From an uncultured Oligoflexia bacterium (GTDB lineage Bacteria > Bdellovibrionota > UBA1018 > CAZJVD01), in NCBI GenBank assembly GCA_964549505.1, contig CAZJVD010000005.1, positions 64,618 to 128,617 of the forward strand: a stretch of 64,000 nt of DNA, in the 5' to 3' direction. The position numbers and the translations under genes were made by a program. A model generated the notes under the pieces. The model did no database searches. It was not told the DNA's origin and saw only the letters and a list, made by a program, of their open reading frames with translations. Within the stretch, counting starts at the first letter, position 1; each line of letters starts with the position of its first letter. This document shows positions 2,557 through 43,448 of this stretch, piece after piece.

Positions 2557-4506
2557 ATGAGTCAAGCCTTTTCCCCCCATATCCCGGCTAGTCGCTCGCT
2601 ACCGGAACTGACGCTACGATCGATCGTGCTCGGTTTTATTCTTTCAGCGGTTCTCGCAGCTGCGAACACCTACCTCGGCCTCTATGCAGGGATGACGGTG
2701 TCGGCGTCGATTCCGGCAGCTGTGACGTCCATGGTGATCTTCCGTCTCTTTCGAACAGCGAATATTTTAGAGAACAATGCCGTCATGACTGCGGCTTCAG
2801 CAGGCGAAGCCCTGGCAGCCGGAATGCTTTTCACGCTTCCAGCTCTCGTGTTGATGGGCCATTGGGAAAGCTTCCGATACTGGGACACGCTCATGATTGC
2901 TCTCTGCGGCGGATTCCTAGGCGTTCTCTTCACGGTACCGCTCCGACAAGCGCTCGTGATCAAACGAGGCCTTCCATTTCCAGAGGGTGTTGCCATCAGC
3001 GAGGTTTTGAAATCGGGTGAGGCCGGCGGACGCGACCTGCTCGTTCTTGCGTTCTCGTCATTGGTTGCGGCTCTCGTCAAGTATTGCAACAGCGCTGCTA
3101 ACCTTTGGTCGGCAGTACTTGAAAAGGCGACCGTCGTCGGTGGTCGAACGTTTTTATACTACGGAATGGACCTGTCCCCAGCACTCTTCGCGGTCGGTGC
3201 CATCGTTGGCCTTCCGGCCTCGTTCGTGATTTTTGCCGGTGGTGCGATCGGCTGGTGGATCGCGATTCCGATTTACATCTGGGTCACAGGAACCCCGACC
3301 GACATGCCTGCCATGGATCTCGGATACATGGTTTGGAGTACGAAGATTCGCTACATCGGTGTCGGCGCGATGGTGATCGGCGGTCTCTGGGCGCTGTACG
3401 AACTGCGCGACACTTTGAAAACAGCCGGAGAGCAGGCTTTACAAGTTATTCGTGGCGCTCGCACGCGCAAAAGCCAGCAGATGGCGTCACAACCACGGAC
3501 GGAACGAAACATTCCGTTATCCTGGGTACTCATTGGCATGGTTGTCATGTTGATCCCAATCTTCATCATCTATGTCCGCGAAATTCAGAGCCTACCGATC
3601 TCCATTGTCATGGCGATCGTGATGTTGATCGCAGGTTTCTTTTTCTCGGCGGTTTCTGGATATATGTCGGGCGTGGTGGGAGCGAGCAACAATCCTGTTT
3701 CGGGAATTACGATTGCAACGCTTCTGTTCGCAGCACTCCTGCTTTTGGTCCTTCTGGGTCGTGGATCGCCCGTCGGTCCAGCCGCAGCGATTCTGGTCGC
3801 AGCCGTTGTTTGTTGTGCGGCCTCCATGGGAGCCGACAATCTCCAAGATCTGAAATGCGGGCAACTTCTCGGGGCGACACCCTGGAAGCAACAGCTCGTT
3901 CTCGGTGTCGGTGTGATTGGCGGAGCTGTCGTGACGGGCCCCGTTCTCAATCTTTTGAACACGGCGTATGGATTCGGGGCGAAAGACGCCGCTCATCCGC
4001 AAGCACTTGCGGCACCTCAAGCAACTCTGATGCTCAATGTTTCGAAAGGTGTGTTCGGTGCTGGTCTTCCGTGGGGCATGGTCTTCATCGGAATTCTGGT
4101 CGGCGCTGGCGTCATCCTAATAGATCGCATGCTTGAGGCACGAAAAGCTAAGTTTCGAATGCCGGTTCTTGCGTTCGCAATCGGGATTTATCTTCCGTTC
4201 GAACTAGGAAGCTGCATCCTCATGGGTGGCATTCTTGCTTGGGCGCTCGGTCGACGTCTGAATAAGATGTCCAAGGCCGCTCAGGAACGCGGTCAACGCC
4301 TGAGTTTGCTCTTTGCTTCGGGTCTCATCACCGGTGAATCGCTGATGGGAATTTTCATCGCGATTCCGATCGTGCTGAGCGGTAAGGCCGATGTGTTTCA
4401 GATCTTGCCAGAATCGCTCGGCGCATGGCCGGGATTGATAGCGATGGGTCTGATCGCTTACTGGCTCTACAATCACGCACTGACGGCTGCACGTAAAGTG
4501 GCGTAG
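2557..4506 (+). CDS. OPT-family oligopeptide transporter
   Basis: 649 aa with many transmembrane segments. The N-terminus LRSIVLGFILSAVLAAANTYLGLYAGMTVSASIPAAVTSMVIF is typical of the OPT superfamily. RBS-like GAGGA lies upstream of the ATG at 2557. Confidence 0.85.
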   Translation: MSQAFSPHIPASRSLPELTLRSIVLGFILSAVLAAANTYLGLYAGMTVSASIPAAVTSMVIFRLFRTANILENNAVMTAASAGEALAAGMLFTLPALVLMGHWESFRYWDTLMIALCGGFLGVLFTVPLRQALVIKRGLPFPEGVAISEVLKSGEAGGRDLLVLAFSSLVAALVKYCNSAANLWSAVLEKATVVGGRTFLYYGMDLSPALFAVGAIVGLPASFVIFAGGAIGWWIAIPIYIWVTGTPTDMPAMDLGYMVWSTKIRYIGVGAMVIGGLWALYELRDTLKTAGEQALQVIRGARTRKSQQMASQPRTERNIPLSWVLIGMVVMLIPIFIIYVREIQSLPISIVMAIVMLIAGFFFSAVSGYMSGVVGASNNPVSGITIATLLFAALLLLVLLGRGSPVGPAAAILVAAVVCCAASMGADNLQDLKCGQLLGATPWKQQLVLGVGVIGGAVVTGPVLNLLNTAYGFGAKDAAHPQALAAPQATLMLNVSKGVFGAGLPWGMVFIGILVGAGVILIDRMLEARKAKFRMPVLAFAIGIYLPFELGSCILMGGILAWALGRRLNKMSKAAQERGQRLSLLFASGLITGESLMGIFIAIPIVLSGKADVFQILPESLGAWPGLIAMGLIAYWLYNHALTAARKVA

Positions 4507-7925: not shown

Positions 7926-8714
7926 TCAGACGGCGGAACTGGCATCCGATGAATCTGAACCAGCGCCCTCAACGCCCTCCTGGACCTGATTGAGAACGTC
8001 CGCAATATGGCCGTTGACCTGAACTCGGTTATAAACCCGTCGGATCACACCGTCGCCATCGATCACAAACGTCGTTCGTTCGATACCGATCGACTTACGA
8101 CCGTACATATTCTTCTCTTTAAGAACACCGTACTTTGTCGACACTTCGCCCGTCTCATCAGCCAAGAGCTTGAACTGAAGACCATACTTCTCAGCAAACT
8201 TCTGATGGCTTCTGACGTCGTCCCGACTGATGCCGAGAACCAAAACACCGCTTTGTTCAAACTGCTGTAACTCGCGCTGAAAGTCGCACGCTTGCTGCGT
8301 ACAACCAGGGGTCATGTCTTTCGGATAAAAATACAGCACGACCTTCTGACCACGAAGATCCGACAGTCGAATGATCTCACCGGTATGTGTCGGAAGCTCA
8401 AAATCAGGAGCTCGCATCCCCTCACTGAGAATCACACCGCGAGCAATCAACCCCGAAGGCGTGGCAGACTTCGCCTGCTTCGTTCCAGGCGCCGTCGCTC
8501 TCGGCGTCGTCGCTTTTGCCTTCGATGTCACTTTTGACGTCGCCTTCGCTGACTTTACCGATTTCGACGGCTTCGATGACTTTCCCGATTTTGCAGGTTT
8601 TGCCGATTTTGCCGACTTTGCATGAAGCGTTTTTCGTGCTGCTTTCTGTACTTTTTTCTTAGAATTTTTATTTTTAGTTTTGGTTTTAGTGGTTCGCGTT
8701 TTTTTCTTTGCCAT
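7926..8714 (-). CDS. bcp: peroxiredoxin Bcp (PrxQ type) with a ~115-aa lysine/alanine/serine-rich histone-H1-like N-terminal extension
   Basis: The C-terminal domain APDFELPTHTGEIIRLSDLRGQKVVLYFYPKDMTPGCTQQACDFQ is a classic Bcp. The N-terminus is MAKKKTRTTKTKTKNKNSKKKVQKAARKTLHAKSAKSAKPAKSGKSSKPSKSVKSAKATSKVTSKAKA. Start taken at the internal ATG at 8714, which has RBS-like spacing. The longer track ORF to 8873 would add an unconvincing N-terminus. Confidence 0.75.
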   Translation of the reverse strand: MAKKKTRTTKTKTKNKNSKKKVQKAARKTLHAKSAKSAKPAKSGKSSKPSKSVKSAKATSKVTSKAKATTPRATAPGTKQAKSATPSGLIARGVILSEGMRAPDFELPTHTGEIIRLSDLRGQKVVLYFYPKDMTPGCTQQACDFQRELQQFEQSGVLVLGISRDDVRSHQKFAEKYGLQFKLLADETGEVSTKYGVLKEKNMYGRKSIGIERTTFVIDGDGVIRRVYNRVQVNGHIADVLNQVQEGVEGAGSDSSDASSAV

Positions 8715-8773
8715 AGTCTGCCCAATATCATGAGGACCTTGGAGAAACGAGGTGTTTTCGATACATCTTTTGG

Positions 8774-10231
8774 ATGCGGAAAAACGGACGCGCGCGCTTA
8801 GTTTTTGCTGTGGGTCTTGTAAGCTTAGCTGCCTCACTCGCTGGTGCTGTGCAGCTATCAGCTCACAAGCCATTTTGGGGAGACGAGGCCCAAGAAATCC
8901 TCCAGACGTGCGAACAAGAGAGTGCGCACATGGCTACCGACGGAGCGATCGGACAATGCAGTCCGCTACCGATTTACTATATTCTTCAGCGCACTCAAGC
9001 GCGTATCGGTTCGATCGCGGGTGAAGGCATCGCCATATGGACCCGTCGAATCAGCCTCCTGGCCGCGGTCGGTTTAGTGGCCGTGATGGTTTGGATGCTT
9101 TACCCACAGGGAGGTCTGCCCGCTTTTCTAGGCGCTGCCAGCGTGATCGATAATCCTCTTTTTTTTCAGTTTGCTGCGGAGGCACGTCCTTACATGCTGT
9201 GGCTCTGGGCTTATGCGCTCGCGATGGGTCTCTTCTGGCGCGACTATCATGACCGCCGACCCAAAAGCCTCATGCGCCGTGGAGCGATTTCGCTCTTTCT
9301 TGCGGGACTTGTCAGTCCCGGATCAGGACAAGCCTTCGCCTTTTGGGCTGCGGAGGGTGTGCCCCGCTCAAAACGGACAGCGCTCTGGATCGGTTTGATT
9401 CTCGTCGCCAGTTTTGCGGTCTCGTTTTACTACGCCGGCTCGACGTGCATGCGAACCGGTGCATCGGAGGGAACATGGTCCACTTCGCCGCACAGAGATT
9501 TGATTCTTGGGTTTCTTAGAGTCGCGCTTCCCTCGGGCCCCTTCGCATGGACAATGACGGGAGTCCTGTGTGTCGGACTTTACTCACTTTTCCGCGACCC
9601 TAGCGCCTCAGGTCGAGCGATACGCAACATACTCGTGACTCAGGGTCTAGCTACAGCTGCCCTTGTGGGTCTGATTCTGTATTTTGACTATTTTCTCGTT
9701 CAACGAAACTTTGTTTTCATGATGATCTGGCGCGGAATTCTGGTCGGTCTGGGCACGTCCTATATTCTCTCCCGATTTCGAACGGTAGCTCTCGAGTGTG
9801 TAGCGACGGCGCTTCTTCTCGCGCTGCCTGTGGCAAGCTGGTTCCGGGTGCACCGCCATCGCAGTTTTGTCGCTGATTTTCCAGTTCCTCTCGACACGCG
9901 TTACCGCGAAGACAAGGCGCCGGATCTTTACTACTACACGTTCGAAAAGCATCGTCCCGGATTCTCGCCGACCTTTGAGGGGGCGCTCAACTTCGCGGCG
10001 CGCGTGGAGAAATCCATCGTCTCGGACACCGACGTTTCCGATACCGATCGCTCGGCGGCGACTCCGCGACCTCGCTGTTTTATCGATACGTACCATCCCA
10101 CCGACCCATGTCCGACGGATCCTCCGCCCATACGTGCGACGCCGCGTACGACCTCAAATGCAACGGAGACTGCAAGTGAGCCGATACGCCTTGCCATATG
10201 CGGACGAGATTTTCAGTTGAACAGACGATGA
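8774..10231 (+). CDS. polytopic membrane protein, possibly a GT-C fold (ArnT/PMT-like) glycosyltransferase
   Basis: 485 aa with about 10 predicted transmembrane segments. An early periplasmic-loop FWGDE motif resembles the DE motif of GT-C enzymes. The gene neighbours the GT9/GT2/flippase genes. The family assignment is inference. The C-terminal ~90 aa are low-complexity. Confidence 0.4.
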   Translation: MRKNGRARLVFAVGLVSLAASLAGAVQLSAHKPFWGDEAQEILQTCEQESAHMATDGAIGQCSPLPIYYILQRTQARIGSIAGEGIAIWTRRISLLAAVGLVAVMVWMLYPQGGLPAFLGAASVIDNPLFFQFAAEARPYMLWLWAYALAMGLFWRDYHDRRPKSLMRRGAISLFLAGLVSPGSGQAFAFWAAEGVPRSKRTALWIGLILVASFAVSFYYAGSTCMRTGASEGTWSTSPHRDLILGFLRVALPSGPFAWTMTGVLCVGLYSLFRDPSASGRAIRNILVTQGLATAALVGLILYFDYFLVQRNFVFMMIWRGILVGLGTSYILSRFRTVALECVATALLLALPVASWFRVHRHRSFVADFPVPLDTRYREDKAPDLYYYTFEKHRPGFSPTFEGALNFAARVEKSIVSDTDVSDTDRSAATPRPRCFIDTYHPTDPCPTDPPPIRATPRTTSNATETASEPIRLAICGRDFQLNRR

Positions 10232-21802: not shown

Positions 21803-21943
21803 TCTTATAATCTACAACCTAAGAGCGCTCACGCGATGCACAATCTTCTGTCAGAGTTTTGACATCTCCCTTTTTTCCCTCTAAAACTAGTTCATCAAGG
21901 AAGAGAGCCCATGGATGTAGAAGAAGGGCTCATTGGGGGGAAG

Positions 21944-23914
21944 ATGATTCGTTACTGTTTCCGATTGCGGAATTTACGTTCCATTGCGGTTGTGTTCCTA
22001 TCGTTAGGTATTCTTGCGGCGTGTGATCCTGTTCCAGGACGAACGCTCAATTCGGACGAGAAAGAGGCCGACATGCGCGCCATCTTTACGTGGTTCGAAG
22101 AGTACTACACACCACTCGCGTACAAACAACAGCGCTTTAACTTCGACTACGAGACTCTCAAGACCGAAGCACTCGCGAAAGCGCGTGCCACCGAAGACAA
22201 CGAAGCGTTCTATCGTGTGGTTCACGAGTTCGTTGCGAACTTTCAAGACGCTCACACGTCTGCTGCGCTAACTAATGCGAAGTTACCGGGTCGTGTGGAG
22301 ATTGCGTTCTTGGGGTTCTCGGGACGGCGCGCTGGTCACGCATTGCTCGTCAACGACATCATGCCGTTGATGAATCCGGAACAGTCGTCCTACCCGATTG
22401 AAGTCGGGGATCTCATCACAGCGATCGACGGTGTGGCACTTCCTCGTTTCGTTCTCGAGAATCTAACAAAGTCACGCAATCTAGGGAATCCTGAGTCCAA
22501 TATCACGGCACTCATGAATCGGACGTTCAACCGATCCACGTTGCATGGAAACATGCCGACTTCGGACACGGTGACGCTGACACTCGAAAGAGAGGGCGTG
22601 ACAAAAACCGTACGCATGCCGTGGATCCGCAGAGATCTTTTTGAACTCAGCAAGGACTTAGCCGTCGATGCGGCTGCAAAAGAAGCGGCTGGTAAGAAAA
22701 AGAAGAAAAAAGAAAAGACATCGAATGCCTTGTCGATTCGCACTCCTCAAGGACCGGTGACCCTCACGCTCGAAGGCTTACAGGGCCGACCATTCCAACT
22801 CGATCAGATCAAACAGCAACTCGAAAGCACGTCCGGAGAGCCACGTTTCTCGCGCTTTTATAAGTCCTTTCAGATCGCTAACGAGTTCACCGGCTGGAAG
22901 GTGCTTAAAGCCGGCGCACAACAGCCCACAGAATGGGAAACGTTCGAAAAGGAGCGTGTCGTACCAGAATTTGCGATTCGATCACCGAAGTCGGAGATCT
23001 TTCCGGCTTATGTAATCAACAACCCGGGACGTCCCGTCGGCGTCGTGCGTATCAGCACGTTTTCGACAGGCGAAACCACCGAGAAGTGTATCGCGGAGAT
23101 ACAAGAGACGTTGCGTTTCTTTCAGCACCACGGCGTCGGCGACATCGTGATCGACATGATTGACAACGGCGGTGGATCACTCGATCTCGTTCTGAAACTC
23201 GCTCAAGCGTTCTCACGTGAGCGCCTTGAGTTTCCCGGTGTGCAATTCGGTCTGAACGAAAACTGGATGAGCGATATGCATTCGGCTGCGGTCTCGAGCC
23301 CCAGTCATCTTGACCGAGAACACTTCCGCAGAGTGTACGCGGACCTCCTCGCACAGCGAAATGCTGGAGCTCGGGTCTCGAAAACTTACGACATCGTCGA
23401 TATGCTGATGCCGTTTGAAGTGGAAGGGAATGCGTCGGTAACCCGGAGGTTCAACATCGCCCTCTTGCAAGACGAGATGTGCGCCTCGGCCGCCGATATT
23501 TTCTCGTACATGCTCAAACGCAATACCGAGATCGGCAAGATGAACGCCACACTCATTGGACAACAAACCATGGGGGCCGGCGGAAACGTCGTCAAACACT
23601 GGCAGACACCCAATGCTCATATCGATCTGCACCAAACCGAGTCGCTTTTCGTGAAGGCAGACGGCACTTATCTCGAAAACAATGGGATTGAAGCCGATAT
23701 CACCACGCCCGTGAGTCTTCATGCGCAAACTCAGTATCGTTCGCTGTACACCATGGCGCTCGAGACGCTCTTGCAACAGAAGACTGCAAAGCGCTTTCGC
23801 CAGATCGATCCTGATGCGGTCAAGCGGGGCGATCCTTTGACGGAACCGAAAACAGCTCTGTCCAAGAAGTGTGACAGGCTTTTATCGGCCCCTCGACGCC
23901 CCAAAGCCGCGTAA
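21944..23914 (+). CDS. S41-family (C-terminal processing / tail-specific protease-like) peptidase, lipoprotein
   Basis: GVVRISTFSTGETTEKCIAEIQETLRFFQHHGVGDIVIDMIDNGGGS is the S41 catalytic core. The signal peptide plus lipobox is LSLGILAAC. Start taken at MIRYCF. Confidence 0.7.
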   Translation: MIRYCFRLRNLRSIAVVFLSLGILAACDPVPGRTLNSDEKEADMRAIFTWFEEYYTPLAYKQQRFNFDYETLKTEALAKARATEDNEAFYRVVHEFVANFQDAHTSAALTNAKLPGRVEIAFLGFSGRRAGHALLVNDIMPLMNPEQSSYPIEVGDLITAIDGVALPRFVLENLTKSRNLGNPESNITALMNRTFNRSTLHGNMPTSDTVTLTLEREGVTKTVRMPWIRRDLFELSKDLAVDAAAKEAAGKKKKKKEKTSNALSIRTPQGPVTLTLEGLQGRPFQLDQIKQQLESTSGEPRFSRFYKSFQIANEFTGWKVLKAGAQQPTEWETFEKERVVPEFAIRSPKSEIFPAYVINNPGRPVGVVRISTFSTGETTEKCIAEIQETLRFFQHHGVGDIVIDMIDNGGGSLDLVLKLAQAFSRERLEFPGVQFGLNENWMSDMHSAAVSSPSHLDREHFRRVYADLLAQRNAGARVSKTYDIVDMLMPFEVEGNASVTRRFNIALLQDEMCASAADIFSYMLKRNTEIGKMNATLIGQQTMGAGGNVVKHWQTPNAHIDLHQTESLFVKADGTYLENNGIEADITTPVSLHAQTQYRSLYTMALETLLQQKTAKRFRQIDPDAVKRGDPLTEPKTALSKKCDRLLSAPRRPKAA

Positions 23915-23991: not shown

Positions 23992-24576
23992 ATGAGCGTA
24001 CTCACCGGACGACAAGCCCCAGGCTTCAAGGCAGATGCGGTCTTTGGATCGGAATTCAAGACGGTTCAGCTCTCCGACTACCAGGGCAAAAAGTACGTCG
24101 TACTCTTTTTCTACCCCTTGGATTTTACGTTCGTGTGTCCAACCGAACTTCACGCATTCCAAGAAAAGCTCGCGCAATTCAAAGAGCGCGGCTGCGAAGT
24201 TCTAGGTTGCTCCGTCGACAGCAAGTTTTCCCACGCCGCTTGGTTGAACACGCCCAAGAATAAGGGCGGCATCCAAGGCGTCACGTATGGATTGATTTCG
24301 GACCTCGGCGGTCGTATTGCTCGCGACTTTGACGTTCTCGCCGATGGTGGTGTCGCGTACCGAGGACTTTTCTTGATCGACCGCGATGGTATTGTTCGTC
24401 ACCAAGTCGTGAACGATCTCCCGCTTGGTCGCAACGTCGACGAAGCGCTTCGCATGGTGGATGCTCTTCAACATTTTGAGAAGAACGGCGAAGTCTGCCC
24501 GGCTAACTGGTCCAAAGGTAAGGACGCCATGAAAGCGACTGGCGAGGGTGTTTCGAACTATCTTTCGAAGCACTGA
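23992..24576 (+). CDS. ahpC: typical 2-Cys peroxiredoxin (AhpC/Prx1 family)
   Basis: FTFVCPTEL (peroxidatic Cys) and a C-terminal EVCPANW (resolving Cys). Length 194 aa. Confidence 0.9.
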
Positions 24577-33474: not shown

Positions 33475-36400
33475 TTAATCTTCGGGGTTTGCGCGCAGAC
33501 TCTCGGCGAGTTCGTCGTACAGAGCGCGCTGCCACGAAAGCAGGGCTTCAGGCTTCACGGCTTTTGCTTCTTGCGAAGCCACGCTGCGGTACCCATGGCG
33601 CCAAGCTGCACGCGCTAAAAACAGATGAACCGCATCGGCATACTTTGGATTTTTTTCCGCGACCTTCAGCAGTGGAGCCGCGGTCCAAGGATCACCCAGA
33701 GCCAGTCGCATAAACCCTATCAGGAAACTTCGGTCTTCGAGGGACTCATTTGAGTACGCTACGTACTCCGCTGCTGCCCATCCGCCTTTTTGAATGAACT
33801 GATAGACCTTATTAAGTCCCGAGGTCTTTTTCCCTTCGCGTTCGGCTTTTTCGAAGGCCGCTTCGAGCGCGAAGAGATCGTCCGCTTGATCTGGAACGTC
33901 TGGAAAGCACGGCATCTGATCGCACAGCGGTGGCTTCGCCTTTTCCAGAGGTGGCATGTAAACGAGTTGCTCGCGTTCGCGATCACAAACATTCTTTTCT
34001 TGATTGTAGATCGACTTCATCTCGACAATCTTTGAGTCGATCTTCTTTACAAAGTCCGGCCACTGTTTACTTTCAATGACGGGGCTCTTCATGAAAACAA
34101 GTCGGTCCACTGCATCTTTCTGAATCTTTGCAGCGGCGCAAAGGGCTGTGATTGTCACCTGAGGAACACCGGTATTGAGAAACTTTTTGAGCTCGTCCTT
34201 GCTGGCACCCAGATCTTTGAGTGTTTCAGCGACACGATCGAGTCGCGATCGAAGCTGTTGTGCTGCCGGACCACTGTCGGATGCTGGTTTACGATCGTTC
34301 GCCCATTTTGCTGACGGGAGCTTACTCACATCGAGGCCACTCTCCATCACGCGCATCCAAAGAGGCTGGAGAACACCCACGCCTCGAAGCGTTTCGGCGT
34401 TGGCCTGCAGATAAACCTTGATCTCGTCGTACACGGGATGCTTATCCCGAAGTGTTTGGAGATAAACATCGCGCATCAGAATCCACACCGGCGCTTCAGC
34501 TTTCTTTGGATCCAGGAGCGGCTTCAAAGACGCCCATGCCGATTGATAGATCTTGTTCCAATAGTACATCCGCGCGATGGTAAGACGGTTCTTTGACTCA
34601 AAGAGAAAGGGAGCTTTCCGTTCAAGGAGAATCGCGATCTGCTCTTTCGTCTTCTTGGGTTCGTAGTAGCTTCCGTACAACAGCATGGCTTCCCAACGAA
34701 TAAGATCGTGCTTGGGATGATCGGGATACACAGCAAGTCCCTGCACTAAGGCATCCGCGCGATGGACCATCTGTCCGAGGCTCTCCCATGCTTTTGCTTC
34801 TTGCATGAAAATTTGAAACACGAGTTCCGATGAATTCTTATCGAGACCCGGGCGCGCAACGCCAGAGGCCTTGAACCGTTCGAGCTCCTTGAAAAATTCT
34901 TCTGATTCGGCTGGCAACTTATACGTGACCAAAAGGTTGTGCCAACTCTTCACCGTCACATCAGATGCAGTGCTAGAGCCCGTAGCTCGTGCGTACCATG
35001 CCCTTGCCTCGACCGAGTTCTTTGCCTTCTCTTCTTTGAAAGCAGCCTGGAAGGCCGCTTCCTGACGAATGCTTTTAACTTGTTTCAGGAACTCTGCGCT
35101 CTTTGCATCGCCCTTCTTAGAGACGATTTCGGCGACAGCGTCGGAGGATAGGAATGCTTCTCTCCACTGCTCGTCTTTATACAAGCGCTTGTTATGCGAA
35201 AAAAACTGTTCTTCGTGGTGCTTGTCCACTCCATCGCGATCGAAGAGCATCACGAGAACGTTACGCGCACGCTCAAACTGCGAAGCGTAAAACAGCGACT
35301 CAAGAACCAGAAACTCAGCAAGGGTCTTATCTTTCGACTTTGGAAACTGCTGAATATACCACTCGGCACCTTCAGCGACTTTCACGTAATCGTCCGCGCC
35401 GACTCCCTTTTGGTTCGCCAACTTCTGCGATACTTCCTTGAGAAGCCGAAGAACACTCAACGCAGCATCGTCACGGTTTTCGTAGCCTTGAATCTCAGCC
35501 GCGCGACGATACCAGGCCAACGCATCGACGGTTTGCTTGAGTTGTTCCTTGCGTTGCGCCCCGTAGTACCAGAGATGACCCTCTTTAGAGTTAGGATAGT
35601 GACTGAGAAACGAAGCGTACAGTTCGTCCGTGGCTTTCCAGATATCGCGATCGTCGGTCTTCTTCGCTTCTTTGTGAATCGTCAGAAGAAGTGCCACGAT
35701 CTTGCTTTCGAGATCGTCGCCCTCTTTGCTGTCCTTCGGAAGTTTCGGCAGATACTCTTTGAGAGCAAGTGGCATCAGCTCTCGTTTGCCAGCGGCCAAT
35801 AGTGTGTAGAGCAACTCGTTCATCCAGAGGTACGAACGCGTGTCGCTCGGAGTTTTGAGCAAGATACTCCACACGGATATCGAGTCTTCAAATCGTCCGA
35901 TTTTTTTGTAGACCAACGCGAGACGTTCACGAGCCCGAATTTTGTCATCCGCTGTCCACCCAAAAATTTCGAGTTCTTGAAGCGCATCTTTGAAGCTGGC
36001 CTGCTCTGCCAACATCATGAGCATGTCCTGTCGCGCCTCGCGCGCTAAACTACCCGGAAGATCCGCTTGGTCACGATGACGTTGATAGTGAAGCACAAGA
36101 CGCTCGAGGTGACGAAGAGCAGCCCACTTCTTTTCCTGGTTGTAGAGAACCCACGATGCCTTGTAGACGCCATACGCCGACTTTTCGGGGTTGCCCAGTT
36201 GGGCAAGCAATCGATAGTTCACGATGGCTTTCTCAAAGTTTGCATCGTCAAAGTAGTAGTCCGCTAAGATCTGAAAAACGTCGGCGCGGTACACCCCATT
36301 GGGATAGAGCTCGCTGAACCTGTTTAAGAACGGAATCGCCTCGCGCGTTTTCGTCTGTTCCCACAAGCAAGCAATATAGAGGAAGGCAGCGTCTTCCGGT

Positions 36401-37638
36401 AAGGACGCTCTTCCTTTTTCAACCATGGCATTAATGATGGGTCTAAGAAGATTCTCGGCGATTCGAAGCGCTTCCTGAGACTGCGTCTTGTACTTGGTCG
36501 GGTCTTCGACACGATAGACGCTGGCCAGATGCCAGTGAAGTTCCGCGCCCAGGTGCACGACCGCTCCGTCGCGCGCTGAATCGGGTATCCTTTTGTAGAG
36601 ATCCACAAGCTTCGAAAGGGCCCCGAGACGTGTCTTAAAATCCCCAGTTGCCGCTTGCTTGTCGACATAGTGGTCAAATCCAGTTTCAACTAAGAACTTT
36701 TCTCGCAGCACTTCAAGAGCGTTTGGAACAAGTGCGTGTTCAGCCCGCGCGAAAGCTCGTTCTTTATCGCCGCTCCGCGAGAGCGTGAAAGCTTCGATGA
36801 GCGCGAGCTCACCTCGCTCACCGTCACGCATACGCTTTTCAACATCGTGAGCGGCATCCAACGCGCGTGTCAACTCCTCCGTACGTGTGTGCGTTCCCAA
36901 GGCGAGTAAAGACCAAAGACGTCCGAGCGATGCAGCAGGTGCGAAGGCCGAGTTTTCAGGAATCGCTTCAAAGTAGACGAGCGCTTCATCGAATCGCTTC
37001 TTTTGGTAGTAGGCGCGACCCAGTAAAATGTACGCTAACTCACGCCACAGTTCGTACGGGCCAACTGTCCCGACATACAACTGAGCGGGAGCGCCCGAAC
37101 CACCCGAAACATAAAGAGGATCAAAGCGTGACTCGGACAGGAGAAGCTCAAGGTTCTCAATGACGACGTCGGCTTTTCCTTCGAACTCGTGATCAAGCGC
37201 TTCAAGGGTCACACGCACGGGGTAGTCCGGGCTCTGCTTGCCAATCGGCCAGGACTTTAGCGCCTTCTTGAGAGTGTCGGTTGTATCGAGCCAAGTCGCC
37301 AGATCCGACATCTGAAGGGGGCGGACGATCTCTGCTACTTTTTCTGGTGCGTTTTCTGTCACTCTTTTCGCCACCGTGTTCGAAGGCGCCGCTGACGAGA
37401 CCACCGACGGATAGACCTCGGGTTTGTTAGCTGGCTTTGTGACGGGTTTTGCGCCCTTTGAAATCTTTTTCTGAACGGTCTTTTTCTGAGAATTTTGCTT
37501 TGGCGCCGGCTTTACAGGTCGTTTCGCTGCCGATTTTGCTTTTGCCTTGCTGACGGGCTTCGCCGCATGCACGCTCGAAAGCGATAGACTCACGGCAACG
37601 GCCATAGCTGCTACGACGCCGGCGAGACACCTCATCAC
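33475..37638 (-). CDS. giant (1387 aa) secreted TPR-repeat protein with a Lys/Ala/Pro-rich N-terminal region
   Basis: Signal peptide AMAVAVSLSLSSVHA, then KPVSKAKAKSAAKRPVKPAPK. It shows TPR-like periodicity throughout (LG/AY/YY helical hairpins). Its start overlaps the stop of the GYF-PilZ gene by 4 bp. Confidence 0.6.
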   Translation of the reverse strand: MMRCLAGVVAAMAVAVSLSLSSVHAAKPVSKAKAKSAAKRPVKPAPKQNSQKKTVQKKISKGAKPVTKPANKPEVYPSVVSSAAPSNTVAKRVTENAPEKVAEIVRPLQMSDLATWLDTTDTLKKALKSWPIGKQSPDYPVRVTLEALDHEFEGKADVVIENLELLLSESRFDPLYVSGGSGAPAQLYVGTVGPYELWRELAYILLGRAYYQKKRFDEALVYFEAIPENSAFAPAASLGRLWSLLALGTHTRTEELTRALDAAHDVEKRMRDGERGELALIEAFTLSRSGDKERAFARAEHALVPNALEVLREKFLVETGFDHYVDKQAATGDFKTRLGALSKLVDLYKRIPDSARDGAVVHLGAELHWHLASVYRVEDPTKYKTQSQEALRIAENLLRPIINAMVEKGRASLPEDAAFLYIACLWEQTKTREAIPFLNRFSELYPNGVYRADVFQILADYYFDDANFEKAIVNYRLLAQLGNPEKSAYGVYKASWVLYNQEKKWAALRHLERLVLHYQRHRDQADLPGSLAREARQDMLMMLAEQASFKDALQELEIFGWTADDKIRARERLALVYKKIGRFEDSISVWSILLKTPSDTRSYLWMNELLYTLLAAGKRELMPLALKEYLPKLPKDSKEGDDLESKIVALLLTIHKEAKKTDDRDIWKATDELYASFLSHYPNSKEGHLWYYGAQRKEQLKQTVDALAWYRRAAEIQGYENRDDAALSVLRLLKEVSQKLANQKGVGADDYVKVAEGAEWYIQQFPKSKDKTLAEFLVLESLFYASQFERARNVLVMLFDRDGVDKHHEEQFFSHNKRLYKDEQWREAFLSSDAVAEIVSKKGDAKSAEFLKQVKSIRQEAAFQAAFKEEKAKNSVEARAWYARATGSSTASDVTVKSWHNLLVTYKLPAESEEFFKELERFKASGVARPGLDKNSSELVFQIFMQEAKAWESLGQMVHRADALVQGLAVYPDHPKHDLIRWEAMLLYGSYYEPKKTKEQIAILLERKAPFLFESKNRLTIARMYYWNKIYQSAWASLKPLLDPKKAEAPVWILMRDVYLQTLRDKHPVYDEIKVYLQANAETLRGVGVLQPLWMRVMESGLDVSKLPSAKWANDRKPASDSGPAAQQLRSRLDRVAETLKDLGASKDELKKFLNTGVPQVTITALCAAAKIQKDAVDRLVFMKSPVIESKQWPDFVKKIDSKIVEMKSIYNQEKNVCDREREQLVYMPPLEKAKPPLCDQMPCFPDVPDQADDLFALEAAFEKAEREGKKTSGLNKVYQFIQKGGWAAAEYVAYSNESLEDRSFLIGFMRLALGDPWTAAPLLKVAEKNPKYADAVHLFLARAAWRHGYRSVASQEAKAVKPEALLSWQRALYDELAESLRANPED

Positions 37639-42362: not shown

Positions 42363-42380
42363 TTTTGAGAGGGGCAGACT

Positions 42381-43448
42381 ATGGATAAACTGATTACATA
42401 CTTCCAAGAAGGCGGGCTGATCATGTGGCCGGTCCTTATTCTGTTGATCATCGGCTGGACGGTGATCGCGGAACGGATCTACATGGTTCTGTTTGTTTAC
42501 AACGCCGATGGGGCCATGCTGATGCAGAAGCTTCAGCGGCTGATCCTCGATAACAATCTTAACGAAGCGATCAAGCTCTGTAACAGCAACAAGAAAGCTG
42601 CCGTTTATCAAGTGCTCAAGGCAGCACTCGTCAACGCGGACCGACCTTTCGAAGAACTTCAAGGGCATGTTGAAGTCGCGACTCTAGGCGTTGTTCCCAA
42701 GCTTCAACATCGGATGACCTACTTGTTCTCGATTGCGAACACCGCAACCCTCATCGGTCTTTTAGGAACGGTTGTCGGTCTGATCGAAACGTTCGGTGCC
42801 GTCGCCGTGGTCGAAGGATCACAGAAACAGGAGATGATCTCAGGCGGTATCGCAACCGCTCTGAACGCAACGGCGTTTGGTCTCTTTGTCGCGATTCCGT
42901 GTATGCTCGCGTACGGATTTCTATACAACCGCATCAACGGTGTTATCGATGATGTTGAGCACTATTCAGCCCGACTTTTGATGCTGTTGCGCACCGGCCG
43001 CGAGTACTTCGAAAACTATACTGTCGATAAGACTGTTTCGACGGAACAGCGCCCAAAAATGGCGAAGAAGAAGTCCCCTATTCCGCCTTCTCTAGGCGGT
43101 GGAGCCGCGGCTCGAGCACCAGCCCCAGCTCGCCCCAAGGCTCAGGCCCGTCCAGTCGCACAGCCCGTTCGGGGCGGCACCAATCCGTCGATCGCTCGCG
43201 GTTACACACACTCTGGGATCCATGCAGCGCCTCATCTCGCTCAGCCTCCGGTTTCACCACCTGTTGTCGAGGAAACGGCCGACGAGCAGCTGGAGGAAAC
43301 AGGTACGTACGTTGAACGCGACGATGTCGGATACCACACCGTAGGTGCCAGCGCGGATGACGCGGTCGAGGCACAGGAGCAGGAACAAGTCGACGAAGCT
43401 TACGAAGATGGCGGCGAAGACAGCGGAGACGACGAGAATGCAGCGTAA
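42381..43448 (+). CDS. MotA/TolQ/ExbB-family proton channel with a ~140-aa Pro/Ala-rich then strongly acidic C-terminal tail
   Basis: LIMWPVLILLIIGW..LFSIANTATLIGLLGTVVGLIETF..GIATALNATAFGLFVAIPCMLAYGFLYNRI are the TolQ/ExbB motifs. The tail ends ..EEQLEETGTYVERDD..EAQEQEQVDEAYEDGGEDSGDDENAA. Confidence 0.85.
   Translation: MDKLITYFQEGGLIMWPVLILLIIGWTVIAERIYMVLFVYNADGAMLMQKLQRLILDNNLNEAIKLCNSNKKAAVYQVLKAALVNADRPFEELQGHVEVATLGVVPKLQHRMTYLFSIANTATLIGLLGTVVGLIETFGAVAVVEGSQKQEMISGGIATALNATAFGLFVAIPCMLAYGFLYNRINGVIDDVEHYSARLLMLLRTGREYFENYTVDKTVSTEQRPKMAKKKSPIPPSLGGGAAARAPAPARPKAQARPVAQPVRGGTNPSIARGYTHSGIHAAPHLAQPPVSPPVVEETADEQLEETGTYVERDDVGYHTVGASADDAVEAQEQEQVDEAYEDGGEDSGDDENAA

Follow-up and report, generated by a model that had tools for sequence, protein, structure and literature searches.

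The locus consists of a single uninterrupted gene on the minus strand of the window (the whole 64-kb stretch of DNA that was analysed), which encodes a 262-residue protein with a lysine-rich N-terminal tail, a peroxidase domain and a short acidic C-terminal extension. The minus-strand open reading frame spans positions 7926 to 8873, and the ATG at 8714 yields the 262-residue product. The features are the following.

7926 to 8714, minus strand: complete coding sequence of a lysine-tailed Bcp/PrxQ peroxiredoxin, 262 codons plus the stop codon at 7926-7928 (open reading frame list, public gene calls)
8711 to 8723, minus strand: start-codon context GGGCAGACTATGG; a second gene start, at 42372-42384 on the plus strand, has the same context
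8433 to 8714, minus strand: N-terminal polycationic tail, residues 1-94, predicted to be disordered (composition, AlphaFold2, codon usage)
8666 to 8690, minus strand: period-6 repeat encoding TKTKTKNKN (Tandem Repeats Finder)
8578 to 8622, minus strand: imperfect tandem repeat with periods of 9 and 18 nt, underlying the tail's (K-S-A/K-P-A/K-S-G) units (Tandem Repeats Finder)
8371 to 8625, plus strand: antisense open reading frame of 84 residues, judged to be a composition artefact (no Pfam match, all homology on the minus strand)
8415 to 8417, minus strand: internal ATG at Met100 (MRAPDF), a competing start downstream of 8714 and the one that PGAP picked in a Zixibacteria orthologue
7977 to 8432, minus strand: Bcp/PrxQ peroxidase domain with a thioredoxin fold, residues 95-246 (Pfam, NCBIfam, PDB matches, AlphaFold2)
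8301 to 8303, minus strand: peroxidatic Cys138 in PKDMTPGCT (invariant column in a 150-sequence alignment)
8286 to 8288, minus strand: putative resolving Cys143 (CTQQAC, five residues past the peroxidatic cysteine; from the sequence)
8076 to 8078, minus strand: conserved active-site Arg213 (invariant column in the 150-sequence alignment)
7929 to 7976, minus strand: short acidic, serine-rich C-terminal tail (GVEGAGSDSSDASSAV), predicted to be disordered (composition, AlphaFold2)

The coordinates and the peptide strings quoted in an earlier note on this DNA agree with the open reading frame list. The protein starts with MAKKKTRTTKTKTKNKNSKKK and contains the peptide AKSAKSAKPAKSGKSSKPSKSVKSAKATSKVTSKAKA; from the 8714 start it reads MAKKKTRTTKTKTKNKNSKKKVQKAARKTLHAKSAKSAKPAKSGKSSKPSKSVKSAKATSKVTSKAKATTPRATAPGTKQAKSATPSGLIARGV, followed by ILSEGMRAPDFELP. 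Independent gene callers, applied to two public assemblies of the contig, produced the identical 262-residue model, and exactly this protein is present in the sequence database (as P0001). The reading frame passes from the lysine-rich part into the peroxiredoxin domain without a stop codon, which rules out the possibility, raised in the same note, that the lysine-rich part is a separate upstream gene. A divergent gene encoding a 485-residue membrane protein lies 59 bp upstream of the 8714 start in the public gene calls, and a sigma-70 promoter scan detected no sites. A longer, 315-residue form starting at the ATG at 8873 was rejected: it overlaps the divergent gene and has no counterpart among the homologues, many of which begin with MAKKK or MPKK. 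The 13-mer GGGCAGACTATGG around the 8714 start codon occurs exactly twice in the 64-kb window, compared to 0.01 copies expected by chance, and its second copy lies where a gene of the MotA/ExbB family starts. The antisense open reading frame is best read as an artefact of composition, as had been proposed: it is the reverse complement of K/S/A codon repeats, finds no match in Pfam and has a codon score of −10.8 bits compared to −5.2 bits for the sense frame.

The earlier description of the enzyme part as a canonical Bcp/PrxQ thiol peroxidase is borne out, and the sequence carries all the testable defining features of an atypical 2-Cys member of this class. The Pfam AhpC-TSA domain covers residues 100-226 (E-value 2e-43; 147.7 bits against a cut-off of 26), and NF006960, the NCBIfam equivalog model for Bcp ('thioredoxin-dependent thiol peroxidase'), aligns with residues 96-246 over positions 4-154 of its 156 and scores 148.6 bits where 140 are required. 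By sequence match, the closest solved structures are of the Bcp class (PDB 5enu, 5e-40; Xanthomonas Bcp 3gkk/5iiz, about 1e-32), and AlphaFold2 predicts residues 95-250 with a pLDDT of about 98 and a beta/alpha pattern consistent with a thioredoxin fold. The PxxxT/SxxC motif is present as PKDMTPGC, with Cys138 at its end, and the translation contains the alpha-type arrangement of an atypical 2-Cys enzyme, C138-TQQA-C143. Cys143 is presumably the resolving cysteine, given the same CxxxxC arrangement in E. coli and Xanthomonas Bcp. The last 16 residues of the protein make up the GVEGAGSDSSDASSAV tail; a C-terminal extension of at least 8 residues was found in just 7 of the 65 tailed representatives among the best 150 cluster representatives described below.

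The N-terminal tail has an extreme composition. Residues 1-94 include 26 lysines and 4 arginines and no aspartate or glutamate, for a net charge of +30; lysine accounts for 27.7%, alanine for 17%, serine and threonine for 13.8% each, and aromatic residues are absent. The pI is 12 for the tail and 5.4 for the remaining residues. AlphaFold2 assigns the tail a pLDDT of 47-57 and no secondary structure, and the repeat periods in its DNA (6, 9 and 18) are all multiples of three. The K/A/S/T-rich extension reported previously thus stands with respect to composition and is shorter than the approximately 115 residues given for it, because NF006960 begins at residue 96 and AhpC-TSA at residue 100, leaving about 94. 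The likeness to histone H1 tails extends to composition and predicted disorder and stops short of homology: Pfam returned no match to the tail even at E <= 10, the HC2 family (PF07382) included, and the globular winged-helix domain of linker histone H1 (PF00538) is absent from the protein, the tail being predicted to be structureless. Because of the lack of a Pfam match, we treat the resemblance to H1, Hc2 and AlgP as compositional; by its make-up, the tail falls within the H1-like or AlgP-type class, which is rich in K/A/P/S/T, poor in acidic residues, repetitive and disordered. By inspection, neither a signal peptide nor a Tat motif nor a lipobox is present at the N-terminus, MAKKKTRTTKTKTK, and the tail, with 9% hydrophobic residues, has no hydrophobic core or amphipathic segment. 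With none of these export signals and no stretch of hydrophobic residues, the protein is most likely cytoplasmic.

Tails of this kind are common among homologues, which answers the question, posed with the original observation, of whether orthologues carry the extension. The set built around P0015, a named 'Bdellovibrionales bacterium' protein, comprises 121 sequences (the window protein, P0015 and the 119 database relatives closest to P0015). Of these, 111 have K/R-rich, acid-poor tails of 21-111 residues, most of the other ten have shorter basic tails, and the alignment consensus starts with MAKKK. When phmmer was run exhaustively against 1.84 billion cluster representatives at 50% identity, 65 of the best 150 had tails of 33-206 residues (median 97), a count to be read as a lower bound on diversity and not as a frequency because the query's own tail inflates the rank of tailed matches. 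Pooled, the tails of this best-150 set consist of 27% K, 23% A, 9.5% T, 8% P, 8% S and 2.5% D+E, with aromatics at about zero. The tail is shared by hundreds of uncultured relatives and, as far as sequences can tell, it is the presence and composition of the tail that are conserved among homologues and not its sequence.

The tailed forms come from several sources. In Bdellovibrionales metagenome-assembled genomes (MAGs), tailed Bcps include P0015, and P0436 and P0449 pass the tail filter; Zixibacteria also encode them; and two MAGs labelled 'uncultured proteobacterium' encode a 436-residue protein with a TASKK-repeat tail of about 290 residues (L031) and a protein of at least 320 residues with KKAAP repeats (L027). 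In the contig scan, most loci with a tblastn match that apparently extended into the tail turned out to be false leads once their open reading frames were read, and only L004, L027 and L031 are truly tailed. One homologous tail (P0360) passes the threshold of the Pfam HC2 family with 75.5 bits against 40, and two others (P0497 and P0244) match it weakly, below threshold. Tail-less Bcps occur in other Bdellovibrionales and Pseudobdellovibrionaceae genomes. In a neighbour-joining tree of distant representatives, based on the domain only, tail presence is weakly clustered, with 35 parsimony changes compared to a mean of 48.5 and a minimum of 41 under permutation. This pattern suggests repeated gain and loss of the tail, in a tree for which the domain is short and start calling is uneven. 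The genomic context of the tailed homologues varies (an unknown membrane protein; mdh-sucCD-ndk...resB-ccsA; pdxST), and among the tailed loci compared, no functional clue emerged from a conserved gene neighbourhood. The SufB protein encoded in the window shares 81-82% identity with proteins whose names assign them to a Bdellovibrionales or Bdellovibrionota bacterium, which places the window in the genome of an uncultured member of the Bdellovibrionota.

The tail also appears to be a property of this enzyme. The window encodes a typical 2-Cys peroxiredoxin of the AhpC/Prx1 type (23992-24576, 194 residues) that lies 15 kb away and has no tail. The same filter for K-rich, acid-poor sequence retrieves only two other open reading frame segments in the 64-kb window; with so few, the tail is no genome-wide habit. 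In 520 kb of scanned loci, nearly all long K-rich tracts are found in bcp genes. On these sequence counts, the tail is specific to Bcp.

The best domain identity of the window protein to database relatives is 55-58%, and the scan of genome contigs found no near or same-species relative of the gene, the best match being a tail-less one at 60% identity in Alicyclobacillus. Because the window gene lacks a close relative, the codon-level test was made on other tailed homologues: a pair from ENA metagenomes (L082/L083) and four Zixibacteria loci (L004, L084-L086). When the tails of either set were aligned as nucleotides only, all gap lengths were divisible by three (12, 15, 6 and 9 nt), and differences were about twice as frequent at the third position of codons (13/9/24, 15/18/34 and 11/11/26, to give three examples). 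Codon-aware alignment of the tails gives 14-21 synonymous changes per pair. The tails of these relatives thus show the coding type of evolution, under purifying selection that, judged from the substitutions, is relaxed but real. In the L082/L083 pair, the tailed gene begins 16 nt past the preceding gene, in a tightly packed operon. The window tail itself uses the codons preferred in the genome (TCG for 8 of 14 serines, ACG for 8 of 13 threonines), and its sense frame has the best codon likelihood of the six, narrowly, at 5.6 bits above the antisense frame, a margin too small to settle the matter by itself.

Taken together, these lines of evidence are best explained, with a probability that we put at about 0.55, by an atypical 2-Cys enzyme of the Bcp/PrxQ class that is cytoplasmic, has a predicted thioredoxin-dependent peroxidase activity and carries a translated, disordered tail of about 94 residues, the charge of which would tether the enzyme non-specifically to a polyanion in the cell, chromosomal (nucleoid) DNA being the most probable one. 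Peroxide reduction would thereby be concentrated at the nucleoid. Precedents for DNA-binding tails are provided by the lysine repeats of TopA (PMC5714199) and the PAKKA repeats of Ku (PMC3553676). Tethering to the nucleoid is plausible on our analysis and could be of particular importance in Bdellovibrionota, where a compact nucleoid partly excludes freely diffusing proteins: in attack-phase Bdellovibrio bacteriovorus, the nucleoid is so dense that free GFP and mCherry are partly excluded (PMC8445325). A tail with affinity for DNA would let the 17-kDa enzyme partition into such a dense nucleoid. The dense-nucleoid rationale is lineage-specific, yet Zixibacteria carry the fusion too. In the nucleoid-enrichment proteomics that accompanies a paper on Bdellovibrio histones, the peroxiredoxin rows retrieved are nucleoid-depleted; from their accessions, we take them to belong to the Leptospira table, so that they carry no information on the window protein.

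The bolder form of this proposal, which we consider doubtful, is that the protein is a dedicated, nucleoid-resident peroxidase whose tail acts as a bacterial 'nucleoid localisation signal' for entry into the dense chromatin of Bdellovibrionota, with independent fusions elsewhere and an acidic C-terminal tail that could modulate the DNA affinity of the N-terminal one in the manner of HMGB1. If this reading is true, PGAP may systematically hide the tailed class by trimming.

Somewhat less credible, and unlikely in our estimation, is a functional tail whose partner is not DNA: RNA and ribosomes or polyphosphate granules would then be bound, placing the peroxidase on translating ribosomes or in polyphosphate condensates. 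The tail belongs to the same composition class as those of AlgP, which associates with polyphosphate granules (PMC9239181), and PhaF, the disordered region of which binds RNA (PMC12818456), and a disordered polycation of +30 presumably has no intrinsic preference for one polyanion. The sequence as such does not discriminate between DNA, RNA, polyphosphate and lipid. However, DNA is the best-documented partner for tails of this type (TopA, Ku, HupB, DdbA, Hc2), and no genes of polyphosphate or RNA metabolism are in conserved linkage at the loci compared.

It is improbable that the tail is translated but functionless, that is, a slippage-driven, low-complexity expansion on a robust enzyme that would at most aid solubility or, through its MAKKK start, expression. 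Such an origin would fit the very fast turnover of sequence and length, from 21 to about 290 residues, the tandem repeats at the DNA level and the patchy distribution among distant Bcp clusters. It does not readily account for the retention of both presence and composition in 111 of the 121 sequences of the P0015 set, the strong exclusion of acidic and aromatic residues, or the third-position bias in the tails of relatives, which points to purifying selection at the protein level. Moreover, the tail is found repeatedly on Bcp and not on the neighbouring AhpC-type enzyme of the window.

Still less probable is a target among anionic surfaces beyond the nucleoid, either the inner leaflet of the membrane, where the tail would bring a lipid-hydroperoxide reductase to its substrate, or polyanions of the envelope or the extracellular space, reached after non-classical export. 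E. coli Bcp prefers fatty-acid hydroperoxides, and the lysine-rich tails of mycobacterial HBHA work on the cell surface although that protein has no signal peptide. Against both variants, the N-terminus has none of the export or lipidation signals listed above and no amphipathic or hydrophobic segment, recycling by thioredoxin requires the cytoplasm, and the dominant polyanions there are presumably nucleic acids. For lack of a signal peptide or hydrophobic segment in a tail with so few hydrophobic residues, the tether to envelope polymers entertained in the earlier note is unlikely.

All of these readings presuppose that the tail is translated. The alternative would be an artefact of start-codon choice, with translation beginning at Met100 (ATG at 8417) or at a nearby TTG or GTG, and with the A-rich 290 nt upstream being a 5' leader or a divergent promoter region that is open in frame by chance. 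PGAP indeed gives the Zixibacteria orthologue 148 residues from MRAPDF, the ATG at 8417 is preceded by a GAGG, a start there would widen the space between the divergent genes from 59 bp to an ample length of about 355 bp, and the low-complexity sequence is likewise free of stop codons in a second frame and on the opposite strand. However, the GAGG is merely 2 nt from the ATG, a poor spacing; the context of the 8714 start is common to another gene start; an Rfam scan of 8300-8950 found no RNA family; the tail extends over 94 codons without any D or E; the tails of relatives carry only indels of 3n length and an excess of third-position differences; and an in-frame, K-rich tail starting with MAKKK or MPKK is kept in 111 of the 121 sequences of the P0015 set. 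A downstream start, named at the outset as the observation that would overturn the fusion, is thus argued against by the comparative evidence from tailed homologues, and we regard it as very improbable and the tail as most probably translated.

Enzyme and tail type are each known; their combination in this protein is new and widespread. Full-text literature searches, in which absence is no proof, found no description of a Bcp that has a lysine-rich tail or associates with the nucleoid. The usual view of peroxiredoxins is that of scavengers diffusing freely in the cytosol; if this one is built to sit on a polyanion, bacteria would position peroxide detoxification spatially. In that case, the tailed Bcp would complement Dps, the sole well-known DNA-bound antioxidant, and an enzyme would join the short list of bacterial proteins with H1-like tails, supporting the view of such tails as portable localisation modules. 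There is also a problem of annotation: PGAP trims the tail of the Zixibacteria orthologue (MCI0330759.1, 148 residues compared to 222 from other callers) and, because at least one orthologue has been deposited without its tail, the architecture is likely to be under-represented in reference databases.

Compared to known systems, the enzyme part shares with the Bcp/PrxQ proteins of E. coli, Xanthomonas campestris (3gkk/5iiz) and Burkholderia (5enu) the whole catalytic domain, the PxxxTxxC and CxxxxC motifs and Arg213, whereas a canonical Bcp has 150-160 residues and no extension, and the window protein adds a 94-residue polycationic N-terminal tail and a 16-residue acidic C-terminal one. Bacterial H1-like tails bind DNA, RNA or polyphosphate non-specifically and localise the host protein. 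Like the tails of chlamydial Hc2 (PF07382), AlgP and PhaF of Pseudomonas, HupB/MDP1 of mycobacteria and the C-terminal tails of TopA and Ku in actinobacteria, the one described here is rich in K/A/P/S/T, free of acidic residues, repetitive, disordered and fast-evolving in length; unlike them, it has no match to PF07382, is built of K-S-A/K-T units and not of KPAA or PAKKA, and is N-terminal on a redox enzyme instead of belonging to a nucleic-acid or granule protein. Yeast Dot5/nTPx is a nuclear peroxiredoxin of the PrxQ/BCP class that is placed in the DNA-containing compartment by eukaryotic nuclear targeting; we know of no lysine-rich, H1-like tail in it, and the likeness between the two proteins is one of class, both being BCP-type peroxiredoxins, and, if the window protein sits on the nucleoid, of placement with the DNA.

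The same architecture is seen in Streptomyces DdbA, a nucleoid-associated protein in which an N-terminal, basic H1-like domain is fused to an unrelated functional domain (PMC3643593), although in DdbA this partner is a transcription factor-like, DksA-like module and not a peroxidase, and the lineage differs. Another parallel is Dps, an antioxidant protein that binds DNA via a flexible, lysine-rich N-terminal tail (PMC12642551, PMC11077075) and protects it from peroxide-driven damage. Dps, however, is a dodecamer of the ferritin fold with a short tail (about 3 lysines) that removes Fe2+ and H2O2 by ferroxidation, whereas the window protein is a thiol peroxidase of the thioredoxin fold with a very long tail.

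In the reference annotation, the Zixibacteria orthologue of the window Bcp (MCI0330759.1; locus L004, positions 2920-3588 of MAG contig JAKEHY010000024.1) starts at the MRAPDF methionine, the equivalent of Met100 in the window protein, and is accordingly 148 aa long, whereas other gene callers predict a 222-aa product that includes the lysine-rich tail. Because codon-level evidence favours the long form over the NCBI start, the lysine-tailed architecture of Bcp may be systematically hidden by reference annotation.

The features of the window that are considered below are as follows.

23992-24576, + strand: typical 2-Cys AhpC/Prx1-type peroxiredoxin, 194 aa, FVCPTE...VCPANW
8774-10231, + strand: divergent neighbour of bcp, lying 59 bp from its start; product of 485 aa predicted to be a multi-pass membrane protein
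33475-37638, - strand: 1387-aa ORF, K-rich part at 37423-37572
7929-7976, - strand: short acidic, Ser-rich C-tail of Bcp, GVEGAGSDSSDASSAV, predicted to be disordered

The AhpC/Prx1-type peroxiredoxin lacks a basic tail; as a control from the same genome, it shows the tail to be a specific feature of Bcp. Extreme forms of the tail occur in MAGs labelled 'uncultured proteobacterium'. The 436-aa Bcp of one such locus (L031, 2140-3450) carries a tail of about 290 aa, in which TASKK/TAAKK repeats are followed by a Pro/Ala/Gln-rich linker; in another (L027, 2-961), the gene is cut by the contig end and encodes at least 320 aa, the Bcp domain being preceded by KKAAP repeats as well as an acidic linker.

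A second lysine-rich region of the window belongs to the 1387-aa ORF, which has no Pfam match. The ORF opens with a signal-peptide-like segment, MRCLAGVVAAMAVAVSLSLSSVHA, after which comes a low-complexity stretch rich in K, A and P, AKPVSKAKAKSAAKRPVKPAPKQNSQKKTVQKKISKGAKPVTKPANKP; the product is apparently exported. A short lysine run, AAAKEAAGKKKKKKEKT (22670-22744, +), also lies within an otherwise ordinary S41-family peptidase (21911-23914). Directly upstream of the tailed bcp in two metagenomic loci (L082, 3512-3985; L083, 3511-3984), an unannotated 157-aa protein is encoded that has a short basic C-terminal stretch, …GIVKKKKPARKA.

The window holds exactly two copies of the 13-mer GGGCAGACTATGG (0.01 expected by chance), and both end with a start codon, that of bcp (8711-8723, -) and that of a MotA/ExbB-family gene (42372-42384, +). 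It may represent a small regulatory motif or a sequence context for translation initiation that the two genes share. The promoters of bcp and of the divergent membrane protein gene, the product of which has no Pfam match, must either overlap or each lie within the coding region of the other gene.

A C-terminal extension of any kind is present in only 7 of the 65 tailed cluster representatives; one tailed homologue (P0282) has a long poly-Asp/Glu C-tail. The pairing of a basic N-tail with an acidic C-tail in Bcp recalls auto-inhibition of the HMGB1 type.
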